From an uncultured delta proteobacterium (GTDB taxonomy: Bacteria > Desulfobacterota > WTBG01 > CAIYCZ01 > CAIRTM01), in NCBI GenBank assembly GCA_963723235.1, contig CAVRPV010000019.1:84064-148063 (forward strand): DNA of 64,000 nt. Reading direction: 5' to 3'. The notes beneath the pieces were generated by a model. The model was not told the origin of the DNA and searched no databases. It saw nothing but the letters and a program-made list of their open reading frames with translations. The stretch's first letter is position 1. Every line of letters begins with the position of its first letter. Of this stretch, positions 6,758 through 58,863 are shown piece after piece. Both the position numbers and the translations under genes were made by a program.

Positions 6758-7996
6758 GCCATGAACTGGATCGGATTTGTCAGGCTGATGCGTTCCATCT
6801 ACGGCAGAGAACTGCCCGACCTGCAAAAAATTCAGGATCAGGGCCTGCTTGCGGTCAAAATCGCGCAGGTGTTCGCCCTGCGCATTGATTTTCTCAACCG
6901 CGAGAAATGCCAGCACCTGGCACGCCTGTACCGCCACACGGTTGAAATCCCCGCTGAAGACATGCACCGCCTGCTGCGCTACTATACGGATGATGACTTT
7001 GCCGGACACTTTGCCTCCATCGAAGACAATGCCCTGGCATCGGCATCGGTCGGACAGGTGCACCGCGCGCGCCTGAAAGGCGGTGAAGAGGTAATCATCA
7101 AGCTCATCAAAGCAGACTGCAAAAAACAGTTCGTGCGCGACGTGCGCTCCATCAAGCGCCTGTTTCAGCTGGCCATCATGTTCTACCCCAAGCTGCAGAA
7201 AGTGGCCGATCCGGTCGGCATCCTTGAAAACATCGAGGACTACACGCTGACCGAGCTCAATTTGCTCAACGAAATCAAAGGGCAGGATATTTTAAAGAAC
7301 ATCTACCTCGAAAACCGCGACCGCTTTGACCTCTCGCACCTCAAGTTTGCCGAGCTGTACCGGGAGCTTTCCAATGAAAATGTGCTGGTCGCTGAATTCA
7401 TTGAGGGCAAAACATTTGATGAGCTGCTTGAGGAAGGCCGCATGCCCTACGATCAGTTATTGGAGCTCTTTCACATTCACGGATTCTACATGTTCGTCAA
7501 CGGGACGTTCCACGGCGACATTCATCCCGGCAACATTATTCTCAATGACGGAAACATTTATTTTGTCGATACCAGCGCCATCAGCCACACGGGCCGAAAA
7601 TCAGACGCGGTCTTTTTGATTTTTTCACGGCGCCTGGCATACTGGGACTACGGCGAATGTGCCGCCTGCCTGAACACGATGGCCGAAACAGGCATTACGG
7701 GCAAACAGTTCGAGGTTTTCAGGGAAAAGTTCATTGCGCTCTATGCTGATTTCAAGGAAAGCACGGTATCAAAGGTCAGCCTGACGCAGAAAATGATGGA
7801 GACCATCAAGCTGGGCGTACACAGCGGCATGGTGTTTGAGCGGGGTATTTTCGCCATCATCAAGAGCCTGATGTATCTTGACGGCATGGTGCTGCGCTGT
7901 AATCCTGATGCGGTGCTGCTGCGCGACATGCGGGCATTTATAGGTGACACGCGAAAAATTATGGAAGAAGTCCTCGCAGCCGATCCACCCGTGTAA
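6758..7996 (+). CDS. ubiB: UbiB/ABC1 family atypical protein kinase
   Basis: ASASVGQVHRARLKGGEEVIIKL and FHGDIHPGNII motifs. The likely start is Met at 6758 within ORF 6710-7996. Confidence 0.8.
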   Translation, partial: AMNWIGFVRLMRSIYGRELPDLQKIQDQGLLAVKIAQVFALRIDFLNREKCQHLARLYRHTVEIPAEDMHRLLRYYTDDDFAGHFASIEDNALASASVGQVHRARLKGGEEVIIKLIKADCKKQFVRDVRSIKRLFQLAIMFYPKLQKVADPVGILENIEDYTLTELNLLNEIKGQDILKNIYLENRDRFDLSHLKFAELYRELSNENVLVAEFIEGKTFDELLEEGRMPYDQLLELFHIHGFYMFVNGTFHGDIHPGNIILNDGNIYFVDTSAISHTGRKSDAVFLIFSRRLAYWDYGECAACLNTMAETGITGKQFEVFREKFIALYADFKESTVSKVSLTQKMMETIKLGVHSGMVFERGIFAIIKSLMYLDGMVLRCNPDAVLLRDMRAFIGDTRKIMEEVLAADPPV

Positions 7997-8000
7997 GGGG

Positions 8001-8536
8001 TTACCGTGGCTTTGCAAGGCCTCGCACGAGTTCAACCACGGAGCCGACATTTTCATCCGGTATTTTCCCCGGCATCACATAGCGCACAACCCCGTCGCGG
8101 TCGATGATGATAACCGTGCTTGTACTTGACGCGGCCCCGTAGTCCTGAAACATCTTCCCGGACATATCAACATAGAGCTGCAGGTTCAACCTGCGCGCAT
8201 TGTCCTGCACCCCCCGAACACAAAATCCCTTAATAGGCCAGGGATATGCGAAACAGTCGATAACGGGCACCAGGGCAATGTTGCGGCGGAGGCGCTCATC
8301 GGGAGGGAAGGCCTTGAGCAGCGCATCCTTAAAGGGCTTGTTTAATTCTCTGGTCTCGCGTGACTCACAGGTTATGACAATAACGCTGCCCGCAAGATCT
8401 GATGAGCGCAGAACCTTTGAGTCGTCATAGCTCACCTCAAATGCCGGGGCGGGCTGGCCGGGCTCAAGCGCTTCGGCCCGCACAGGCAACAAGCACAGCA
8501 CACTAGCGCAACCAGTGCAAAACTATAGACATATTT
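8001..8536 (-). CDS. Secreted thiol-disulfide oxidoreductase / peroxiredoxin (redoxin family), with a frameshifted signal peptide
   Basis: PAPAFEV..GSVIVITCES is the redoxin fold. The signal peptide MKYVYSFALVALVCCACC is encoded in an adjacent frame at 8536-8480. Confidence 0.65.
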
Positions 8537-49668: not shown

Positions 49669-49707
49669 CCAAAAAGAAAGAGACCCTGCAGGGTCTCTTT
49701 CTTTTTC
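49669..49707. terminator. Bidirectional rho-independent terminator between convergent genes
   Basis: AAAGAGACCCTGCAGGGTCTCTTT flanked by A- and T-runs. Confidence 0.8.
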
Positions 49708-49726: not shown

Positions 49727-51086
49727 TTAAAACTTGAAGAGCAGATCGGCTTGCAGGACATGTTCATCATCGCTGCGGCCCACATCCTGCTTACACATAT
49801 AATAGGCGCCTCCAAGCTCAACATTCTTCATCAATCCGTAGGCAGCTTTTACTACATACCCGTTCATATTGGTCTTGCCGCCATAGGCATCAGAATCCGG
49901 GAATATGTCAAGCCATGCATCTTTTTCCAGTTTCTCATAGTACGCTTGGACCTGCCATTGACGCGGCTCTTTAATCTTCTCGTGACCGAACTTGATCCCG
50001 GCGGTATACCCGGTATCTTCTTTAACGCTGCTTGCGGTATTCTTAACATATTCACCATACAGCGCGGCAAACGGCATCAGCGCAAGACCGGTATTTTTGG
50101 TGCCCAGCTCGCCTGATACTACGACCGGCTCGTAGTCATATGCCAGGGTTTTTCCATCCAGCGTGTTTGATTTGCTTGAATAGTCAAGCGTAGAACCCTT
50201 GACATTGCTGGCGTTGTAGTAGGCAAACGCGTTCTTGAAATACGCATTTTGTCCAAGTTTAATGTTGTACCCGGGCTGCAGAAAAAAGAAGCCCGGGTCG
50301 TTTGAACTCTCTTTGATCTCGTCGATAACCCAGTACCCGTTGGTCATGAACAGGTCAACGCTGCCCACTGTGCGATTCATAGACGCTGAAACACCTTGCG
50401 GCCTGATATCACTGTCCCAAATCCAGCCACTGGGCATCCAGAGCGGATTTTCAAACTGACCGCCGACAAGCCGCAGCCACTCAAAGGGCTTGTAGGATGC
50501 ATAGGCATAATCAAGCCGGATGTCAGGTGTTTCAAACGAATTACCAAAAGTCTGGTTGGTGCTGCGCGGATCAGCGTGCCGCTGGCCAGCCCGAAGCCTA
50601 CGTTGAATTTCTCGTTGACCTTCGTGACCATGCCAAGACGAAAACGGTAGCGGCCGCGGTTGCGTTCATCTTCACCGTCGTTGTCTTTGTTGCTATTCTC
50701 GTAGCGCAGCCGAAATCGCCCTTAAACTGGGTGTTTTTGATAAACTCCGGCATCGCCAATGACGAGATGATTTCCTTGTTCGTTTTGTCTTTTTCAGACT
50801 TTTGAACACTCAAAATGAGGTCGCCGTCCTTCTTGGTCAATACACCTTTGTCAACCAGCTTATCCACCAGCATGTCCATCTCGCCCGCCATGACAGGGGC
50901 CTGGCACAAAAGCAGGGCTATCATAACCATGATGCTGATAATTGTCCGTTTCTGCATGCTTTCCTCCTTTATGTTTGCATCAATATACCGGTTTACACAC
51001 CATTCATTTATTGCCTGCCAGCAAGGGCTGCAGAGCACATGTACGCTTTCGTTGTTACTGCCGTTGCCGCACATTCTTGCATGCAT
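49727..51086 (-). CDS. Putative outer-membrane porin, paralogue 1; frameshifted
   Basis: Signal peptide MQKRTIISIMVMIALLLCQAPVMA and N-terminal helical segment (LVDKLVDKGVLTKKDGDLIL). Beta-barrel-like alternating pattern, and a C-terminus ..LQADLLFKF ending in Phe. Confidence 0.55.
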
Positions 51087-51279
51087 TCCTCCTTTCTGTT
51101 TTCTGCGCTGCCGGTTAAGAAGACACTCCGATTACATTAATTTCTTGTAAGATCATACGGGCGCTCTTTTAATATTGAGATAGGCAAGCGGTTATTTTTC
51201 AGTTAAAACATCTCCGGCTTTCTCGCCGCAGATTGTTGAGCAAATCATTTCGGGCGGGGTGTTGTGCGGGCGTTTGCGC

Positions 51280-51314
51280 AAAAAAAAAGAGACCCTGAAG
51301 GGTCTCTTTTTTTC
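51280..51314. terminator. Rho-independent terminator, near-identical to the one at 49669-49707
   Basis: AAGAGACCCTGAAGGGTCTCTT flanked by A9 and T7. Confidence 0.8.
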
Positions 51315-51332
51315 AAAGGCTATGAAGATTTT

Positions 51333-52616
51333 CTAAAAGTTTACATTCAACTCGACCATCACGTTGTCCTCATTGTTATCTGAACCGGTTAGCGGCTTGC
51401 TGTGATAATAATTGGTTCCTATATTAATATTATCCATGAGCCCGTAGGCAACCTTCAGGATATAGGCCTCAACGTTGGTCTGCCCGCCGTACGTATCGGC
51501 ATCCGGGAAGATGTCAAGCCATGCATTGCGCTCCAGCCGGGTGAACTGCAACGCTCCCTGCCACTGGTGTTTCTTTGCAACCTTCTCGTGACCGAACTTG
51601 AAACCGACTGTTTGTCCGCTGTCACCCCTGCTGACGTCCCGGTTGTTGATGTATTCGCCGTACACCGCGGCAAACGGTATCAGCATAAGCCCGGTTTTGT
51701 ATCCGAGCTCGCCAGAGACCACGTACGAGTTGTAGTCATACTTCAGAGTATTGTCCTGATTCCGCGTGTTTGAATCGCTTGAATAGTCAAGCGAAGCGCC
51801 CTTGACATTCGAGAACTGATACACGGTCAGAGCGTTTTTGAAATAAGCTTGCTTGCCAAGGTTGACCTTGTAGCCGGGCTGAATGACCCACATGAGCGGA
51901 TCGTCCGAGATCATTGCGTATTCATCCAGGATCCAGAAGCCGCTGTTCATGAACAGTTCAACGCCGCCCACCGTGCGCTGCATAACCGCAGTAACACCCT
52001 CAGGCCTGATGTCGCTGTCCCACAGCCAGGAATCCCCGGGAAGCCAGAGCGGATTTTGAAACTTGCCGCCTATAAGCTTCAGCCAGTCAAATGGCTTGTA
52101 GGTGGCATAGGCCAGGTCAAGCCGGATTTCGGCCTTGTCGAATGAATTGTTCATGTCCTGCATGCCGCTGCGCGGATTAGCGCCGCCGGTTGCAATGCCG
52201 TAGCCCACATCGACTTTGTCGTTGATTTTCGTGACAGCGTTAAGGCGCAGCCGGTAACGGCCCCGGTTCCGGTCTTGTTCTGAATCGCCCCTGCGGTCGG
52301 TATACTGATAGCGCAGGCGAAAATCGCCTTTAATGGTGGTATTTCTGAACCACGCGGGAATTGCCTCGGCCAGCATAAACGGGGCATCCTTGCCGGTCAT
52401 AAGCGCTTCTTTTGTAGCCGCGATGGTTTCCGTGCGCTCTTTTGCGGCTTCAGCCTTGGTTTCCTTCAAAATGGCGTCGGCATCCTGCTGGTTCAATAGG
52501 CCCTTTTCAACCATCTTTCTTACCAGGATGTCAACTTCACCTGCCGTGGCAGGAGACTGCCACATGAGCAACAGCATCATAATTATTGTCAGTAGTGTTC
52601 CCTTTTTCATCTGCAT
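51333..52616 (-). CDS. Putative outer-membrane porin, paralogue 2 (intact, 427 aa)
   Basis: Signal peptide; LVRKMVEKGLLNQQDADAIL helical N-terminus; C-terminal ..VELNVNF. Confidence 0.55.
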   Translation of the reverse strand: MQMKKGTLLTIIMMLLLMWQSPATAGEVDILVRKMVEKGLLNQQDADAILKETKAEAAKERTETIAATKEALMTGKDAPFMLAEAIPAWFRNTTIKGDFRLRYQYTDRRGDSEQDRNRGRYRLRLNAVTKINDKVDVGYGIATGGANPRSGMQDMNNSFDKAEIRLDLAYATYKPFDWLKLIGGKFQNPLWLPGDSWLWDSDIRPEGVTAVMQRTVGGVELFMNSGFWILDEYAMISDDPLMWVIQPGYKVNLGKQAYFKNALTVYQFSNVKGASLDYSSDSNTRNQDNTLKYDYNSYVVSGELGYKTGLMLIPFAAVYGEYINNRDVSRGDSGQTVGFKFGHEKVAKKHQWQGALQFTRLERNAWLDIFPDADTYGGQTNVEAYILKVAYGLMDNINIGTNYYHSKPLTGSDNNEDNVMVELNVNF

Positions 52617-52997
52617 TCCTCCTGTGTGTTTGAATAGTGCCGGTTAATCAAATAGCTGAACGTTTTTAGTACCTGCTGTGGTTGTTCGTCACATGACACC
52701 GAACAACCCGACCCTGCAACTCAATCAGCAAACATTTTGCACAAAGAGTGCCACTCTTTGTTACGGTGCTTCAGAGATGCCGTTCTCCTGCAAAACTCCT
52801 TGTTTTCAGACTGTTTTTCTTTTGGCGATCAAGTCAAGCACTTAGGCACTGACTAAAAACAACAAATTTCAGCCATATGCGGCTCATTTTTTCAATCATA
52901 TTTGACTGAAAAAATGCATTTTAATGTTATGCGCCCATAGAAGTACATGAACCAATCACATGTTGTGCCAGCAAAAATATGTTAAAAAAAAATAACA

Positions 52998-53050
52998 GTC
53001 AAGTTAATTTTGTTACTTAAGTTATTTAAGGTAATTATTGGTTTTATTTG
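52998..53050 (+). promoter_or_regulatory. Conserved AT-rich element E3 (GTCAAG..TTATTGGT..TTTATTT), upstream of the tandem porin genes
   Basis: Related 55-60-bp elements occur at 57235-57295 and 62951-63010. Confidence 0.5.
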
Positions 53051-53177
53051 CAGCATTAGAAGAAATTGGGGTAGTGCATGCGCCTGTCCTGCAAGCCATG
53101 ACGCATGCTATACGATGAAAATGAAGGCTGCCAATCCGGCGTAGATATACTTTATAAAAATGAAGGTGGCTAAACAA

Positions 53178-53440
53178 TCAGGTTGCAGACAAAAGCTGTC
53201 CAGTGGCTGATGTGTCATAGCCGCCCATGGCATTGACCTTCTGCCTGAAGGACTCTGAACGCACCACCTGCAGCAGGGCATCAATCGGCCCTGCTGAGGT
53301 GCTCTGTTTGGAAATGATCAGGTCGAAGCGTTCTTTGGCAAGATGCACAAAATCAAGGCCCGGCATTTTTGCCGCGCTCAGAATGCCCATGGCCACATCC
53401 GCTGATCCCCCGAATACGGCAAGACATAGGTGGTCTGCAA
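53178..53440 (-). pseudogene. Orphan fragment: a duplicated 3' end (last ~85 codons) of the TunR-family regulator gene
   Basis: About 250 bp, roughly 85% identical to 57424-57670. Encodes ..MGILSAAKMPGLDFVHLAKERFDLIISKQSTSAGPIDALLQVVRSESF.. with no N-terminal HTH. Confidence 0.6.
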
Positions 53441-53515
53441 AAAAGGCAGGGTCATGTGCTGACCCTGCCTGTGTGGTTATTCAAATTTGCTTCCAGTGTT
53501 CTCGGCACTATAGTG

Positions 53516-55463
53516 TCAGAGAATAGATGCAGCCTTCATTGCAGCCTTTTCAGCTTTATGCCGATTCGAGAGATCGGTTTTTTCTGCTTTTTGCTCATCT
53601 GAAAGAGTATTTTTTTCAGATTTTTGCCGAACACTAAGAAGCTTGGCATCATCTTTATCAACGTCACAGTCACCGTCCAGGTCCCATTCCAGGCCGCATC
53701 CGGAAAAACCCATAGCAGCCTTCATTGCAGCCTTTTCGGCTTTATGCCGATTCGAGAGAGCGGTTTTTTCTACTTTTTGCTGAGTTGAGAGAGCAGTCTT
53801 TTCGTTCTTTTGCCGGAGCTTAAGAATACTGGAATCGTATTTATCAACGTCACAGTCACCGTCCAAGTCCCATTCTACATCGCAGATGCACTTGTCAATA
53901 CCCTCGTCGCAGGTTTCACCCGCTGAGCAGGGACCGGCTGCAAACCCGCACACCTCAGCCGTACAGACCGGCGCACCGGTGCAATACAGGCCGTCATCCG
54001 GGCAGTCACTGTCCTTCAGGCACTCTACATACTCCAGGCTGAACTCAACCGTCTGGTTATCGCCGTGGATCACGGTCACATCCTCGGTCTGGCTGCGGTA
54101 GTTTTCGGCAGATACCGTAAGGGTATAGCTTTTTTCATCATTTTCAGGGCCGGAAACCACGCCCCGCTAACATGAATTGGCCTTTGGTGTCGGTACGCGT
54201 TTCATAGCCGCCCATGCCGGTTTTCACCAGCGCATTTGCAATAGGCTTTTGCAGCACCCGCGAGACCACCGTACCCTTGATATTGCCATTGCGCAGATTG
54301 CCGTAAATAACTATCTTCTCGTCATTGAGCAGGCCCCAGCCCGCGTCGGTCTGGCTGTTTCTCCAGTCATATTCTGTTGTGCCTTCAGGCAGCGGATCGA
54401 CCCGGATGGCGGCGACACCGCGGGCTGAAAAGCCGGCATTATGGTCGGTATTGACCTCATTTTTATCATAGGGCCAGGGCTCAGCAGCAGGTGTTGCCGA
54501 GGTTGCCTGACGGTCGGGATAGCCGGGTCTCCACTGCGGGGGCACAGCCCGGAACGGGCCTTCGCCCACGAGCTTGTTCTGGGCGTCCTGGTAGGCAATG
54601 TCGAGATAGGCGCCGTTGGCCTTGTAGGCAAGCAGCAGCTTCAAACCACCAGCAACCGTTATGGTCTGGCCATGAGTCCTGCCGGTGCAGCCCGGCGCGC
54701 TGTAGTCGACCCAGCCGCCATTGGCTGAATCTGCTGTCGCATCATAAAAATATTGCGCCTGCGGATAGGTTCCCTCAATGGGGTAATTAGTGCCGGTGCT
54801 CGTGCGCGCATAGGTATAGCTGTAGCCGTCGGGTGCGGTAACGGTTATGCCGGAGCTGGCAGCGGTCCAGCCGGTTGCCTCAAGCAGCTCCTGCATAATG
54901 AAGCCGGTATACGTGGCATAATAGTCGAAGCCGCTTTCTCCGCCCCGGCTGGTGTTCATGAGCATAAACTGCGCATGGGGCGTCAACATGGATTCAAGCT
55001 CATCAAGGCTCAAAATAATATGCGGCGCCGGCACTTTTGCCGGCGTGTCGAGCGCGTCACCGGGATAGCGAATGGCATTGATTTCCGTTATATTGCTGTA
55101 GGTGTCATTGTCCGAATCAAGGCCCTCAATTGCTTCAAGGGCCGCCAGGCTTCTGCCCGCCGCATTATAATCTGTGCCGAAGGGGTTGAGTGTTTTGGCA
55201 ATATCGCCCGATCCATCATAACCATATACTGTGTGGCAATACTGGCACGCGCTCTCGGTGACCACGGCCCCCGATTTTGTCTTGTACGTATTGCCCTTGT
55301 GGCACGTGGCGCAATCGTCAAGCTTGGTGCCCGCCTTGTCGGGGTAGACCTTCAGAAATTTCGGGGCGTCTTGCTCATCCAGATGATGGTAGGCGCCAAA
55401 GGCCGTGCCTGAGAAAAGCGCAAGCACGGCAATCCCTAAACACAGTGTTCTCAGTCGTCTCAT
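53516..55463 (-). CDS. Secreted multidomain protein: diheme c-type cytochrome, unknown central domain, CarboxypepD_reg-like domain, EGF-like Cys-rich module, and Asp-rich tandem repeats; frameshift near 54150
   Basis: Signal peptide. Two CxxCH motifs (DCATCHK, CQYCH). ..NGNIKGTVVS..TDTKGQFML / SGPENDEKSYTLTVSAENY.. across the shift. CPDDGLYCTGAPVCTAEVCGFAAGPCSAG..; repeats CDVEWDLDGDCDVDK..KAEKAAMKAA x2. Confidence 0.55.
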
Positions 55464-55487
55464 ACAATTCCTCCTGTCCTGTTAAGA

Positions 55488-56997
55488 TTAAAATTCAAGC
55501 TGCAGGCGCGCCATCCACGCCTGCTCAATGTCCTCGTAATAGGCTGCGCCAGAGTCACTATAGCCTAGAAACAGCGGGTCTCCAAAGCGGGTGTAGCTGT
55601 AGTCAAGGGAAAACCTGACCATGGCATTGAGGTACCAGTTGATGGCTGCTGTCAGCGAATTGGCCTCGCGCACGCTCAACCCCTCATTGACAAGAGATTC
55701 ATAGGTGATTTTGTCCGCCTCGAACTGCTGATACATAAATCCAAGGCCCCAGGCACCCCAGGACCCGGTGCGGATATTAAAATCCTTGAGAGGCCGAATT
55801 TTTCCCAGGACACCCCCTTTCAGTTCAGGCCGCTCGCCGGTCAGCATAACCAACAGCCCCGCGTACCACGAGCGCAGGGAAAAATCGAAAAGCTCAGTGT
55901 CGGAGATTTTTACGCCGCCGTAGTCATTCTTGATATACTCAGCCATCAGCGCCACAGGCCCGAGCGTGTAGGCCAGTTCAAGGCCGTAGCGGTTCAGATC
56001 ATCGATTTCTTCGGTCATGTGGAATTTTGCATTTGGCTGGATAGTGTAAAACGTCGTGCGGGCCGGAGTTTTAACCTTTACATTGAAGTCCGATGTGTCG
56101 AGGCGGGCATAGGAGTAGGAGCCGCCAATCTGGAGCGATTTCAGAAAATCAGGGCCCCAGGTGCTGCAGCGGCTTAAACACCAGCCGGCCGGTCACCTGC
56201 TTATCGTCCTTCTGGCTGCGGCGGTTGGCATCGGTGCCGTCACCGTTGAAAACGCCAACGCCATACATGATCGCTTCATCATACAAACTGCCGTGCAGCA
56301 TGAGACCCACATCGCGACCGGGTGTGAGGTAAAAGCCAAAGGAGCGCTCGGTGAAAGCAAGATTTTTATCAGCCGTAAGCTGCTCGAAGCTGAAAGGCTC
56401 CTTGAACTGCCCCATGCGCACCTGCAGCCACGGCACGGCATCATAATTTATATAGGCATCGATCAGGTCGTCGCTGCTTGAGCCCTCCAGCTCGTACTCA
56501 AGGCGGTAGGAAAAATCGCGGTACAGGCGGCCTTCGACAAACAGGCGCGCCCGGCGTATATCAAAGTCATTGCTGATAGGATAGTTGGGCTGAAACATCA
56601 GGTAATCTGTCTGGATGAGCCCGCCGATGCGCATTTCAAAACTTTTGTCCTGCAGGCCGATCTTTAAGCCCTCGTCATAGCTGACCTTGACCTCCCTGGC
56701 CTCTTTTTCAGCCTTCAGCTGCAGGGCCTGTTTGTCTTCTTGATCAAGTGTTGCTTTTATTTCACGGGCCTGCGGCTCAGTAAGCGCGCCATTTGCTTTT
56801 AAGAAATCAAGCAGCTTCTGATCGGCAAGGGGGCCGGCAGAAGCTGCTGCGGGCAGCAGCAGGCACAGGCAGAAAAGAATAGTGCCGTATGTTTTGCTCA
56901 TTTTTCTTTTTCCTACGACGAAAAAAAGCCGGTTCCGTGCCAAAGCAGGGAACCGGCTTGCGCGCAGGCAACCGTATTCTCTCTCCTTCCCCAGCAC
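55488..56997 (-). CDS. Phosphate/anion-selective porin of the OprO/OprP (Porin_O_P) family; frameshift near 56020-56150
   Basis: Signal peptide MSKTYGTILFCLCLLLPAAASA. ..RIGGLIQTDYLMF.., ..DIRRARLFVEGRLYRDFSYRLEYELEG.., and ..LQVRMGQFKEPFSFEQLT... C-terminal ..ARLQLEF. Confidence 0.7.
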
Positions 56998-57234
56998 GGG
57001 AGGCATGGCCTTTTCAGACCATACCCTGTCGGCCGCGCTTCATAGGCTTTAAGCCCGTAGAGCTTCGCGGCTCGGAGATAAAATATCTTTCAGCAGAGCC
57101 CGTTTAGCTCTGCACTATCATTTTATTTAGAATACAGCCCCTTCCTGTGTGCCGCACCGTTCGCGGAATGCCGCATTTTTCTCAGGGGGCCATGTCGATG
57201 ATGCAATTACAGGATATAGAAAACAAAAGACTAT

Positions 57235-57295
57235 GTCAAGCCAAATTAGTCATTATTGGTAATATTAAGTTATTATAGGTTAGTTTAAATTCACA
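57235..57295 (+). promoter_or_regulatory. Conserved AT-rich element E2, in the promoter region of the porin-cytochrome operon
   Basis: GTCAAGCCAAATTAGTCATTATTGGTAATATTAAGTTATTATAGGTTAGTTTAAATTCAC; compare with E1. Confidence 0.5.
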
Positions 57296-57423
57296 AAATA
57301 GTTTTGCAGCCCAGGCGCAAAGATGCCGATACAGGGCCGTCTGCATGGTGGTTAGCACAGAAACTGATTGTGCAGTGGATCTCAGCTGCGGCGGAATTTG
57401 TTTGATGGAGAAATGACGCAGTA

Positions 57424-58342
57424 TTACGTTGCGGCTATGAGCTGACCAGTGGCCGATGTGTCATATCCGCCCATTTTATCGACCTTCATTTTGAAGACTT
57501 CAGACCGGACAACCTGAAGCAGGGCATCAATCGGCCCTGCTGAGATGCTCTGTTTGGGAATGATCAGGTCGAAGCGCTCTTTGGCAAGATACACAAAATC
57601 AAGGCCCAGCATTTTTGCCGCGGTCAGAATGCCCATGGCCGCGTCCGCTGATCCGCCGAAAACAGCAAGGGCCGCCTCATTATGAGTGGAAACCTCGTTC
57701 TCATAGCCGGTTATCTGCCCGGCATCAATGCCCAGCCGCTGCAGCTCGGCATCAAAAAACAGGCGCGTTCCCGAACCGCTCTGGCGGTTGATAATGCGCG
57801 CGCCGGAACCGGGCAATGTCGGCGACGTGTTGCTATGTTCAGAGGATTGCCGCGCTGCACAATCAAGCCCAGGTCGCGATACACAAGATTAATCACCACC
57901 ACTGCCGTGTCCGGCAGATACTTTGCCAGATACGGCACATTGTAGCTGCGGGTTGCCGGGTCGAACAGATGTGCGCAGGCCACATGGCAGATGCCGCTTT
58001 GCCAGGGCAATAAGCCCGCCGGCGCTGCCCACATTGTGAAACCGAAAGACTCAAGTCCGGGAATGCCTGTGGTCAGCTCATGGGACAGCAGCTCCATGCA
58101 GAAATCATGGCTGCCCATGGCCACGATATGGCGTGCCCGGCTGCGCCGCTTTACCCTTTCATCGACACATTTTCTTCAGCGTTTTTTATTATCCAGGCAT
58201 CGATCAGCTGTTTTGGAAATGTCCATTTGCCGGTAATGCGGGTTGCGGGTATTTTTTTATCCTGAATGAGCTTGTACACCTGCTTTTCATTGATATTGAG
58301 ATACTCAGCAAGCTCTTTGGTGTTCAGCATTTCTTTATTCAT
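57424..58342 (-). CDS. TunR-family (COG1910) transcriptional regulator: excisionase-type HTH plus a periplasmic-binding-protein-like oxyanion-binding domain; frameshifted
   Basis: N-terminus MNKEMLNTKELAEYLNINEKQVYKLIQDKKIPATRITGKWTFPKQLIDAWI. The C-terminal PBP-like domain lies in ORFs 57711-58124 and 57424-57816. Confidence 0.65.
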
Positions 58343-58647: not shown

Positions 58648-58863
58648 ATGGCAGGAATAATGTTTTATCGTGAGCGCACCAAAATCGGCGAAGGCAAAAA
58701 GGCCCCTCGCTATGTAATGGTTGCGGTGAGCGGTGTAGATTTAAAGTTTTACGCCAAGCATGTGCGCAAGCAGGAGCTTGACCAGATCGCGACAGCGGTC
58801 AAGGCCAAACTGGTTGAGCTGAAGGTCGACAAACGAAAAAAGCAGGACAACGTCGAATGCTGA
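58648..58863 (+). CDS. Small basic hypothetical protein (71 aa)
   Basis: Good RBS (AAGGAAAATACCATGG). Sits immediately upstream of the MoSto-like gene. Confidence 0.4.
   Translation: MAGIMFYRERTKIGEGKKAPRYVMVAVSGVDLKFYAKHVRKQELDQIATAVKAKLVELKVDKRKKQDNVEC

Follow-up and report, generated by a model that had tools for sequence, protein, structure and literature searches.

A molybdenum/tungsten-cofactor riboswitch precedes a porin and GEGP diheme protein operon beside tungstate-uptake genes in an uncultured delta proteobacterium

In sulfate reducers and syntrophs, a central part is played by enzymes that depend on tungsten (W) or molybdenum (Mo), such as formate dehydrogenases and aldehyde oxidoreductases. 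To our knowledge, descriptions of W and Mo uptake start at the periplasmic binding protein; we know of no account of how these metals cross the outer membrane, or of how thiolated and reduced W and Mo species, which dominate in sulfidic habitats, are handled. Among outer-membrane anion porins, OprP is induced together with its cognate ABC uptake system under nutrient limitation. Here we analyse a two-gene operon that encodes an OprO/P-family anion porin and a diheme c-type cytochrome with a GEGP motif (hereafter the GEGP protein) in an uncultured delta proteobacterium. The operon lies in a window of 64,000 nucleotides (nt) of contig CAVRPV010000019.1 (GCA_963723235.1), to which all coordinates refer, and all its genes are on the minus strand.

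Described systems come close to parts of this locus. Riboswitches for the molybdenum cofactor (Moco) or the tungsten cofactor (Tuco or Wco) precede molybdate/tungstate ABC transporters, cofactor biosynthesis genes and cofactor-using enzymes (PMC2408646). The E. coli representative is an OFF switch, and variants without the P3 hairpin correlate with tungsten-cofactor metabolism, which is a correlation only (Regulski 2008; PMC2408646). PruR is a Sec-exported periplasmic protein with the fold of sulfite oxidase (SUOX) but without its Mo cysteine, and it binds a small pterin instead of Moco (PMC11194511). The regulator TaoR combines an HTH_17 domain with a PBP_like domain (PMC11980592).

The operon runs from a promoter through a leader with riboswitch and attenuator, the porin gene and the GEGP gene to a terminator. 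The riboswitch is its decisive feature, and had been missed in the preliminary description of this stretch, which was made from the letters and their reading frames without database searches. An aptamer of Rfam family RF01055 was found at 56967..57089 (67.4 bits against a gathering score of 36; E = 4.5e-14). The match spans the full length of the model with the P3 hairpin positions deleted, and it is the sole Rfam element found in the whole window. The aptamer sits between a sigma-70-like promoter (57211..57239, read from 57239 to 57211; TTGACA, a 17 nt spacer and TATCCT) and the porin ATG at 56901, and ends 66 nt before this ATG. The promoter is a consensus match only, at 10 of 12 positions, and the best promoter-like match of its region. 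Between aptamer and ATG we predict an intrinsic terminator hairpin, AAGCCGGUUCC...GGAACCGGCUU followed by a U7 tract (56921..56959), as the attenuator or expression platform; in the minimum-energy fold of the leader, this GC-rich hairpin and the aptamer form side by side. The stretch 56902-57006 is thus leader RNA and not coding: the porin start previously read at 57006 falls inside the riboswitch, and we place it at 56901, where the protein starts with MSKTYG and a signal peptide. The ligand of this P3-less variant is probably the tungsten form of the pterin cofactor.

Both genes are interrupted in the assembled sequence. The porin gene (55488..56901) is split into open reading frames (ORFs) 56149-57006 and 55488-56018, and the cytochrome gene (53516..55463) into 54144-55463 and 53516-54160. 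Deleting one G per gene from a GGGG run, at 56155-56158 in the porin and at 54162-54165 in the cytochrome, yielded continuous proteins of 470 and 648 amino acids (aa), and these translations are the repaired proteins used below. Intact orthologues and synteny were taken from a lake-metagenome contig of a Deltaproteobacteria metagenome-assembled genome (MAG), VGSH01000005.1, which is both L001 and L003 of our loci. Relative to its intact orthologues (469 and 627 aa), the two single-G insertions are the only frame-breaking differences in both genes, and aa identity on either side of the break is 92% and 89% for the porin and 91% and 77% for the cytochrome. Clear frame switches affect five of the seven genes that are syntenic with L001 (one each in the TupA, porin and GEGP genes, two in the regulator and at least two in TupC); TupB aligns to L001 only from residue 12, and a Mo-storage-like gene and the second Porin_5 gene of the window are also frame-broken. 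Because intact orthologues are 87-92% identical, conservation continues undiminished past the breaks and frame breaks pervade the neighbourhood, the extra G bases are most likely indel errors of the assembly; the latter two observations also led us to disfavour real pseudogenes. The preliminary description had pointed out the cytochrome frameshift near 54150, across which the repaired gene stays one protein, but had not flagged the one in the porin.

The two halves of the porin match PF07396 (Porin_O_P) with 73.5 and 44.7 bits (cut-off 20.9), which bears out the earlier assignment to the OprO/P type. The repaired protein begins with MSKTYGTILFCLCLLLPAAASA, ends in LQLEF and has an N-terminal helical extension of ~60 aa. 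An identity as an ExtI-type selenite/tellurite porin was rejected (33.7 bits versus a cut-off of 150). The cytochrome gene is co-oriented with the porin gene, as had been described, and its ATG follows the porin stop codon after 24 nt rather than the 25 bp given before, with an AGGAGG ribosome-binding site in front of it. The operon ends in a terminator with a stem of 11 bp and a T-run (53444..53470).

The cytochrome belongs to a curated family. Residues 24-390 match NCBIfam NF041762, "GEGP motif-containing diheme protein", with 438.4 bits (cut-off 300; E = 2.1e-131) over profile positions 1-358 of 359, so that the ~250-aa central domain previously called unassigned falls within this family. 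NF041762 is named by its motifs alone, with no function, regulation or partner on record in the sources searched. More than 500 homologues were found, some already so named by NCBI, and the family comprises hundreds of clusters at 50% identity; 193 matches at E <= 1e-30 were obtained among 1.84 billion cluster representatives. Best among the homologues is P0001, with 87% identity at 100% query coverage.

Residue conservation was read from an alignment of 51 homologues. The diheme module (55044..55394) consists of the mature N-terminus AYHH and two CxxCH sites, CATCH at aa 51-55 (55299-55313) and CQYCH at aa 73-77 (55233-55247), from which two c-type hemes are predicted. The preliminary description had made its view of a fused protein depend on the frame of these sites; both are in frame and invariant in all 51 homologues. 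Equally invariant are Y25, H27, D116, D118, D120, N124, E127, N170, W251, G302, P303, R305, Q310, D317, W330 and H341, and the GEGPFR motif lies at aa 300-305 (54549-54566). The module also holds an Asp-rich, Ca-loop-like motif, DSDNDTYSNITEI, at 55080-55118. Throughout the family the N-termini are of Sec type, with a Lys-rich n-region and an AxA cleavage site before AYHH but without a conserved RR (twin-arginine, Tat) motif. An ATCUN-type metal site at the mature AYHH was considered and dropped, because the invariant His is the fourth residue past the likely cleavage site.

Beyond the family domain the repaired protein continues with a CarboxypepD_reg beta-sandwich (PF13620; aa 395-477; 54032..54281) that spans the frameshift and passes its cut-off of 32.3 bits after repair (41.4 bits; E = 1.9e-10). 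It is followed by a Cys-rich linker with 8 Cys in ~48 aa (53882..54025), read from the sequence and without significant family match, and by two repeats (53529..53884), each made of a Ca-loop-like motif, EWDLDGDCDVDK, and a Lys/Glu-rich helical stretch. Hence the domain order given earlier (signal peptide, two CxxCH sites, a domain of ~250 aa, CarboxypepD_reg, Cys-rich part, repeats) is confirmed, whereas no profile supports the label EGF-like for the Cys-rich stretch, and the two repeats are 62 aa each instead of ~50 aa. The repeats are spaced by 186 nt and share 83% nt identity over 170 aligned nt; TSP3_bac is matched weakly by 15 of the 51 family members. The C-terminal region varies widely across the family. 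Some homologues, in L020, L034 and L064, terminate with ...DDGDSSSCFIK or with DCFISS, a hydrophobic helix and GRKK, which looks like a sorting or anchoring signal at the C-terminus. The Actinomycetota homologues and L050 have a common helical C-terminal domain of ~110 aa instead.

AlphaFold2 models were made of aa 1-395 (pLDDT 86; pTM 0.83) and of the central domain, aa 140-372 (pLDDT 93.2; pTM 0.90), and both were compared with the PDB by Foldseek. The models support a SUOX-like fold, resembling the Moco domain of sulfite oxidase, for the central domain (54348..55046), closest to the pterin-binding PruR and without the Mo-ligand cysteine. The top 23 hits of the domain model all have the SUOX fold, with PruR first, followed by SorA, chicken sulfite oxidase, SorT, SoxCD, Thermus sulfite oxidase and YedY; their probability reaches 1.0, with E only ~1e-2 and TM scores of 0.26-0.59, and the model of aa 1-395 agrees. 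PF00174 is matched weakly by 24 of the 51 family members (best E 1.4e-4), whereas the window protein gives no match to it up to E = 10. The structural hits and these weak matches lend weight to the earlier guess of a sulfite-oxidase-like Moco fold. Outside the CxxCH sites, no Cys is invariant or nearly so among the 51 homologues, and a weak hhalign alignment places T171/N170 opposite the Mo-ligand Cys102 of YedY (sequence verified against 1XDQ). Attachment of c-type heme requires Sec export of the unfolded chain, and this requirement, together with the absent Mo cysteine, argues against a conventional Moco enzyme.

To compare neighbourhoods, 80 of the 278 loci that encode GEGP relatives in GTDB species genomes were fetched, and their neighbouring ORFs were clustered. 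Whether porin and cytochrome genes occur together in other genomes had been posed as a question by the preliminary description. A Porin_O_P gene lies immediately upstream of the GEGP gene on the same strand in 57 of the 80 loci, where the gap has a median of about -32 nt, and in 52 of the 73 loci that have at least 1.6 kb of sequence upstream. The porin-less loci include all seven from Actinomycetota (Coriobacteriia and Thermoleophilia), which are monoderm and have no outer membrane. Directly downstream of GEGP, L005 (3960-4355) and 12 further loci (L006-L018) encode a conserved secreted protein of ~130 aa, and tupA often comes next. This protein, a possible third component of the operon, has no Pfam or NCBIfam match and ends in an aromatic F-x-G-Y motif; neither the window nor L001 encodes it.

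Riboswitches in these loci were searched with a custom covariance model, R1, built from four Rfam riboswitch hits, and matches were re-checked with Rfam at gathering level; L018 was searched with R1 alone and Rfam was not run on it. Rfam confirmed the element upstream of porin-GEGP in 12 related Desulfobacterota loci, and R1 added L018 as the thirteenth. It precedes the porin in L003, L005, L007-L012, L014, L015 and L017 (Rfam gathering level), whereas L013 has a single riboswitch followed by a tupA-porin-GEGP operon. In L010-L013 a riboswitch precedes tupA, and in L011 the tupA and porin leaders both show the layout of aptamer plus terminator. The element also stands directly before GEGP in 7/7 Actinomycetota loci (62-77 bits), with no porin and with unrelated neighbours; the leader of L042, for example, contains aptamer, terminator-like hairpin and ribosome-binding site, followed by the Sec signal and AYHH. 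Tandem copies before the porin were seen in L008 (two, 8130-8492), in L009 (two, 7966-8356) and, by R1, in L018 (three, 8004-8521). L009 has an extra riboswitch at 2755-2879, before two DUF364/DUF4213 ("heavy-metal chelation") genes and tupBC.

The tungstate-uptake context of the operon had also gone unnoticed, with its tupABC genes, TunR/TaoR-type regulator and Mo-storage-like gene. The window from 53.4 to 64 kb is syntenic with L001 and encodes, in this order, PhoU, a TupA-like protein, TupB, the ATPase TupC with its TOBE domain, an HTH_17+PBP_like regulator, the porin and GEGP. The TupA-like proteins match no family other than NF041772, and that of L011 has the TTTS motif. Among the 15 closest loci, 13 have tupA adjacent, and in more distant loci regulators or tup genes adjoin; about a dozen loci have no riboswitch but an adjacent HTH_17+PBP_like regulator or adjacent tup genes. 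At least one explicit W/Mo marker lies within 10 kb in ~33 of the 80 loci.

The TunR/TaoR-type regulator gene (57424..58342) has two frame breaks; its L001 orthologue is intact with 303 aa. Just upstream of the -35 box of the porin-GEGP promoter lies a putative operator of two 12-nt direct repeats, ACCTATAATAAC and ACCAATAATGAC, 20 nt apart from start to start (57249..57280). With up to one mismatch, the motif ACCWAWAATNAC has seven matches in the window, of which six, including all four exact ones, are paired at three promoters, those of porin-GEGP, Porin_5 and tupA, all on the minus strand and just upstream of a TTGAC box. The motif is conserved in L003 at both the porin and the tupA promoter. 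The pairs presumably form a common operator for the adjacent regulator.

With moderate confidence, we read the operon as the outer-envelope arm of tungstate/molybdate acquisition within the W/Mo homeostasis regulon of a member of the Desulfobacterota, in which we infer a role for the GEGP protein from its setting. This agrees in direction with the earlier idea of a metal-handling module coupled to an anion channel. When the pterin cofactor is plentiful, it would bind the P3-less aptamer, the terminator would form and transcription would stop; when the cofactor is scarce, transcription would read through into the operon. The neighbouring oxyanion-sensing regulator of TunR/TaoR type would probably add control at the operator shared with the tupA and Porin_5 promoters. 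The porin would let tungstate or molybdate pass the outer membrane selectively, on the way to TupA and TupBC. The GEGP protein, exported by Sec and fitted with two c-type hemes, would act as a redox-active accessory outside the cytoplasm. Its cysteine-less SUOX-like pocket may bind a W/Mo species or a pterin rather than carry Moco, and the protein may prepare or capture metal for uptake, for instance by turning thio- or reduced W/Mo species into a transportable oxyanion.

Several points weigh against this reading. Riboswitch matches by R1 are missing from ~58 of the 80 loci, and Rfam found no riboswitch in the 14 of these that it was run on, all from Desulfobacterota (L006, L020, L026, L034, L064, L025, L027, L029, L030, L063, L067, L068, L071 and L072). 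No W/Mo marker lies within 10 kb in ~47 of the 80 loci, many of them on short contigs. The TupA-like proteins score 185-243 bits against the equivalog cut-off of 400 for NF041772, and both tungstate and molybdate are possible substrates. OprO/P-type channels are known for phosphate and pyrophosphate, not for tungstate, and the need of oxyanion uptake for two hemes has no explanation. The similarity to SUOX is remote (Foldseek E of ~5e-4 to 1e-2; TM 0.2-0.6, or 0.5-0.6 on PruR length), hhalign gives YedY a probability of only 21%, and PDB profile searches with full and domain-only alignments returned no SUOX match, so that the fold assignment is drawn from Foldseek and the weak Pfam matches. 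The frameshifts could be real, for example very recent mutations, and the operon would then be dead in this strain. Our literature searches retrieved no experiment with any member of the GEGP family, no paper on the family, its regulation or its porin partner, and nothing relevant on a link between porin, tungstate and riboswitch. Control by this riboswitch is equally typical of cofactor-using enzymes (Regulski 2008; PMC2408646), and would also fit a cofactor-independent backup enzyme.

Such a backup enzyme is the alternative that survives best, although we regard it as rather unlikely. By analogy with B12 riboswitches, which repress B12-independent isoenzymes such as MetE, the GEGP protein would be a heme-based, Moco-free descendant of SUOX enzymes that is made only when Moco or Wco is scarce, and the porin would deliver its oxyanion substrate. 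A SUOX-like fold that lacks the Mo-ligand Cys but comes with two c-hemes, a leader with the architecture of an OFF switch, and the stand-alone riboswitch-GEGP units of Actinomycetota, with no transporter nearby, are all what this idea would lead one to expect. Yet the placement of tupA in the same operon in L013 points more simply to uptake. There is also no evident candidate substrate, no catalytic residues were identified, and no periplasmic SUOX-type activity is known that these anaerobes must keep under Mo/W starvation.

We judge it unlikely that the protein instead captures or senses a pterin or cofactor outside the cytoplasm in the manner of PruR (free pterin, molybdopterin or released Moco/Wco, for salvage or signalling), with the hemes keeping the ligand reduced or reporting the redox state. 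That riboswitches often govern how the ligand they sense is taken up or salvaged counts in favour of this proposal. So does the finding that PruR, a non-Moco pterin binder without Mo cysteine (PMC11194511), is the best structural match of both models. However, GEGP has neither an adjacent signalling partner of DcpA type nor a linked cofactor importer, and the residues with which PruR contacts its pterin, a stacking Tyr/Trp and Asn, could not be mapped onto GEGP. Moreover, channels of the OprO/P type should be too narrow to pass a pterin cofactor.

A true SUOX-type enzyme that depends on Moco or Wco and is fused to its partner cytochrome c, with the riboswitch tying expression to cofactor supply, seems very unlikely. 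It would be a single-chain analogue of SorAB or SoxCD, and the SUOX-like fold beside a diheme module resembles SorA with SorB and SoxC with SoxD; the weak PF00174 matches of 24 family members and the occurrence of this riboswitch upstream of cofactor-using enzymes (Regulski 2008; PMC2408646) fit as well. But the domain has no conserved Cys, with Thr/Asn at the position of YedY Cys102 in the weak alignment, and the leader is built in the same way as that of tupA, an uptake gene. Proteins preloaded with cofactor are exported by Tat, whereas c-type heme is attached after Sec export; the Sec signals of the family and its c-hemes thus exclude insertion of the cofactor in the cytoplasm. An Mtr/Pcc-like extracellular electron conduit, suggested by the earlier title "porin-cytochrome operon", by the joint operon of a porin and a secreted c-type cytochrome, by weak CxxCH-driven matches to MtrC/MtrF domains and by C-terminal modules of cell-surface type, is most improbable, since two hemes are too few to span the membrane, the porin belongs to the OprO/P anion-channel family (PF07396) and not to the MtrB/OmbB type, the family also occurs alone in monoderm Actinomycetota, and control through a W/Mo-cofactor riboswitch is unconnected with respiration.

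Beyond this acquisition reading, we propose more tentatively that GEGP proteins form a new class of heme proteins outside the cytoplasm, based on a SUOX-like fold without cofactor. They might be deployed at W/Mo-cofactor shortage, together with a dedicated anion porin in diderms, to mobilise or capture W and Mo, for instance from thiolated or reduced forms in sulfidic waters, or the pterin cofactor itself. The protein family and the riboswitch class were already catalogued; what is new is the presence of outer-envelope components in a W/Mo-cofactor regulon. If this tentative proposal is true, it would give tungsten acquisition its first dedicated component in the outer envelope, and riboswitches a target of a new class. 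The operon adds a porin and a cytochrome to the target list of Moco/Tuco riboswitches. The widespread, motif-named GEGP family gains a first functional lead from its association with a cofactor-sensing riboswitch in two phyla, tupABC and an anion porin, and the domain would be another case, after PruR, of a SUOX fold reused without molybdenum. The hypothesis can be tested in cultured carriers such as Desulfatibacillum alkenivorans (DSM 16219), Desulfonema magnum and Desulforhopalus singaporensis.

Further features of the window flank the operon. Downstream of it, and upstream of the Porin_5 promoter, lies a 5'-truncated paralogue of the regulator with the C-terminal ~84 codons of PBP_like (53178..53432), which reads in frame back to ~53432. 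Its 247 nt at 53177-53423 are 85% identical to 57423-57669, and its translation has ~80% aa identity to that of 57424-57678. A duplicate of ~250 bp of the regulator's 3' end had been reported before and does exist, but at 85% nt identity it is not recent, and therefore no evidence of recent rearrangement. Synteny with L001 ends at 53439, just past the operon terminator (53470-53444), and coincides with the fragment junction. From these comparisons the fragment is read as an old, truncated paralogue that belongs to the neighbouring Porin_5 unit and not to the operon: it is what is left, at the 3' end, of another, diverged regulator gene that formerly stood before the two Porin_5 genes. It is also read as the mark of a rearrangement junction rather than of a recent duplication. 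A search of a plasmid collection with the fragment gave no match and was uninformative.

The Porin_5 (PF16930) genes are two tandem paralogues on the minus strand (49727-52616) with 70-86% nt identity, of which the distal one is frameshifted. After both genes come terminator-like palindromes that are nearly identical to each other (49673-49706 and 51280-51313), and the promoter region of the proximal gene (52617-53177) holds a ACCWAWAATNAC pair and a leader of ~370 nt without Rfam match. The pair may belong to the W/Mo regulon as well. The window OprO/P-type porin (aa 24-90) and Porin_5 (aa 26-60) share a similar helical segment between signal peptide and barrel (LLDFLKANGALTEPQAREIK versus LVRKMVEKGLLNQQDADAILK). 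Between the regulator and tupC, on the plus strand, a frameshift-split gene (58920 to ~59800) is closest to the beta subunit of the molybdenum storage protein of Azotobacter (PDB 2ogx_B; E = 3e-26). It is preceded by a 71-aa ORF without family match (58648-58863) and is absent at the equivalent position of L001; L009 has a similar AA_kinase gene (7075-7905) between tupC and the riboswitch-porin unit. Unrelated to these findings, Rfam matched PYLIS_2 (the pyrrolysine insertion sequence of mtbB) on the Thermoleophilia MAG contig of L069 (17960-18059).

Compared with known systems, the window protein matches NF041762 end to end with both CxxCH sites and the GEGP motif, and differs from the family profile in the CarboxypepD_reg domain, Cys-rich linker and two TSP3-like repeats added at its C-terminus. 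PruR (PDB 7kos, 7kou and 7rkb) is its best structural match, and both are Sec-exported and lack the Mo-coordinating cysteine. However, PruR is a single domain of 150 aa paired with the DcpA sensor, while GEGP has ~80 more residues in the fold, a fused diheme module and an identity to PruR of only 14-15%, and no DcpA-like neighbour was found in the 80 loci. With SorAB, SoxCD and sulfite oxidase (PF00174; structural ranks 3 to 23) it shares a SUOX-type fold combined with a heme electron-transfer module, but it lacks the Mo-ligand Cys, carries a Sec signal in place of a Tat signal, has c-type hemes on the same polypeptide and stays under the Pfam threshold. Mtr/Pcc conduits have cytochromes with at least 8 hemes and an MtrB/OmbB-type sheath porin, in contrast to the two hemes of GEGP.

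The porin resembles OprP and OprO of Pseudomonas, which serve phosphate and pyrophosphate, in its PF07396 membership, signal peptide and C-terminal Phe, and would resemble OprP also in being co-controlled with a cognate ABC uptake system. Unlike these porins, it has the N-terminal helical extension and stands under a W/Mo-cofactor riboswitch in linkage with tupABC, not in the Pho regulon. The adjacent regulator has exactly the HTH_17 plus PBP_like architecture of TunR/TaoR (PMC11980592), although its gene is frameshifted in the window, which also holds the second, 5'-truncated copy, and its operator and ligand are assigned here by presumption. Finally, the published targets of Moco/Tuco riboswitches (PMC2408646) include neither an outer-membrane porin nor a secreted diheme SUOX-like protein, whereas the locus shares with these regulons a full-length, P3-less aptamer above the gathering score followed by a terminator, and the tup genes of related loci carry the same RF01055 element.

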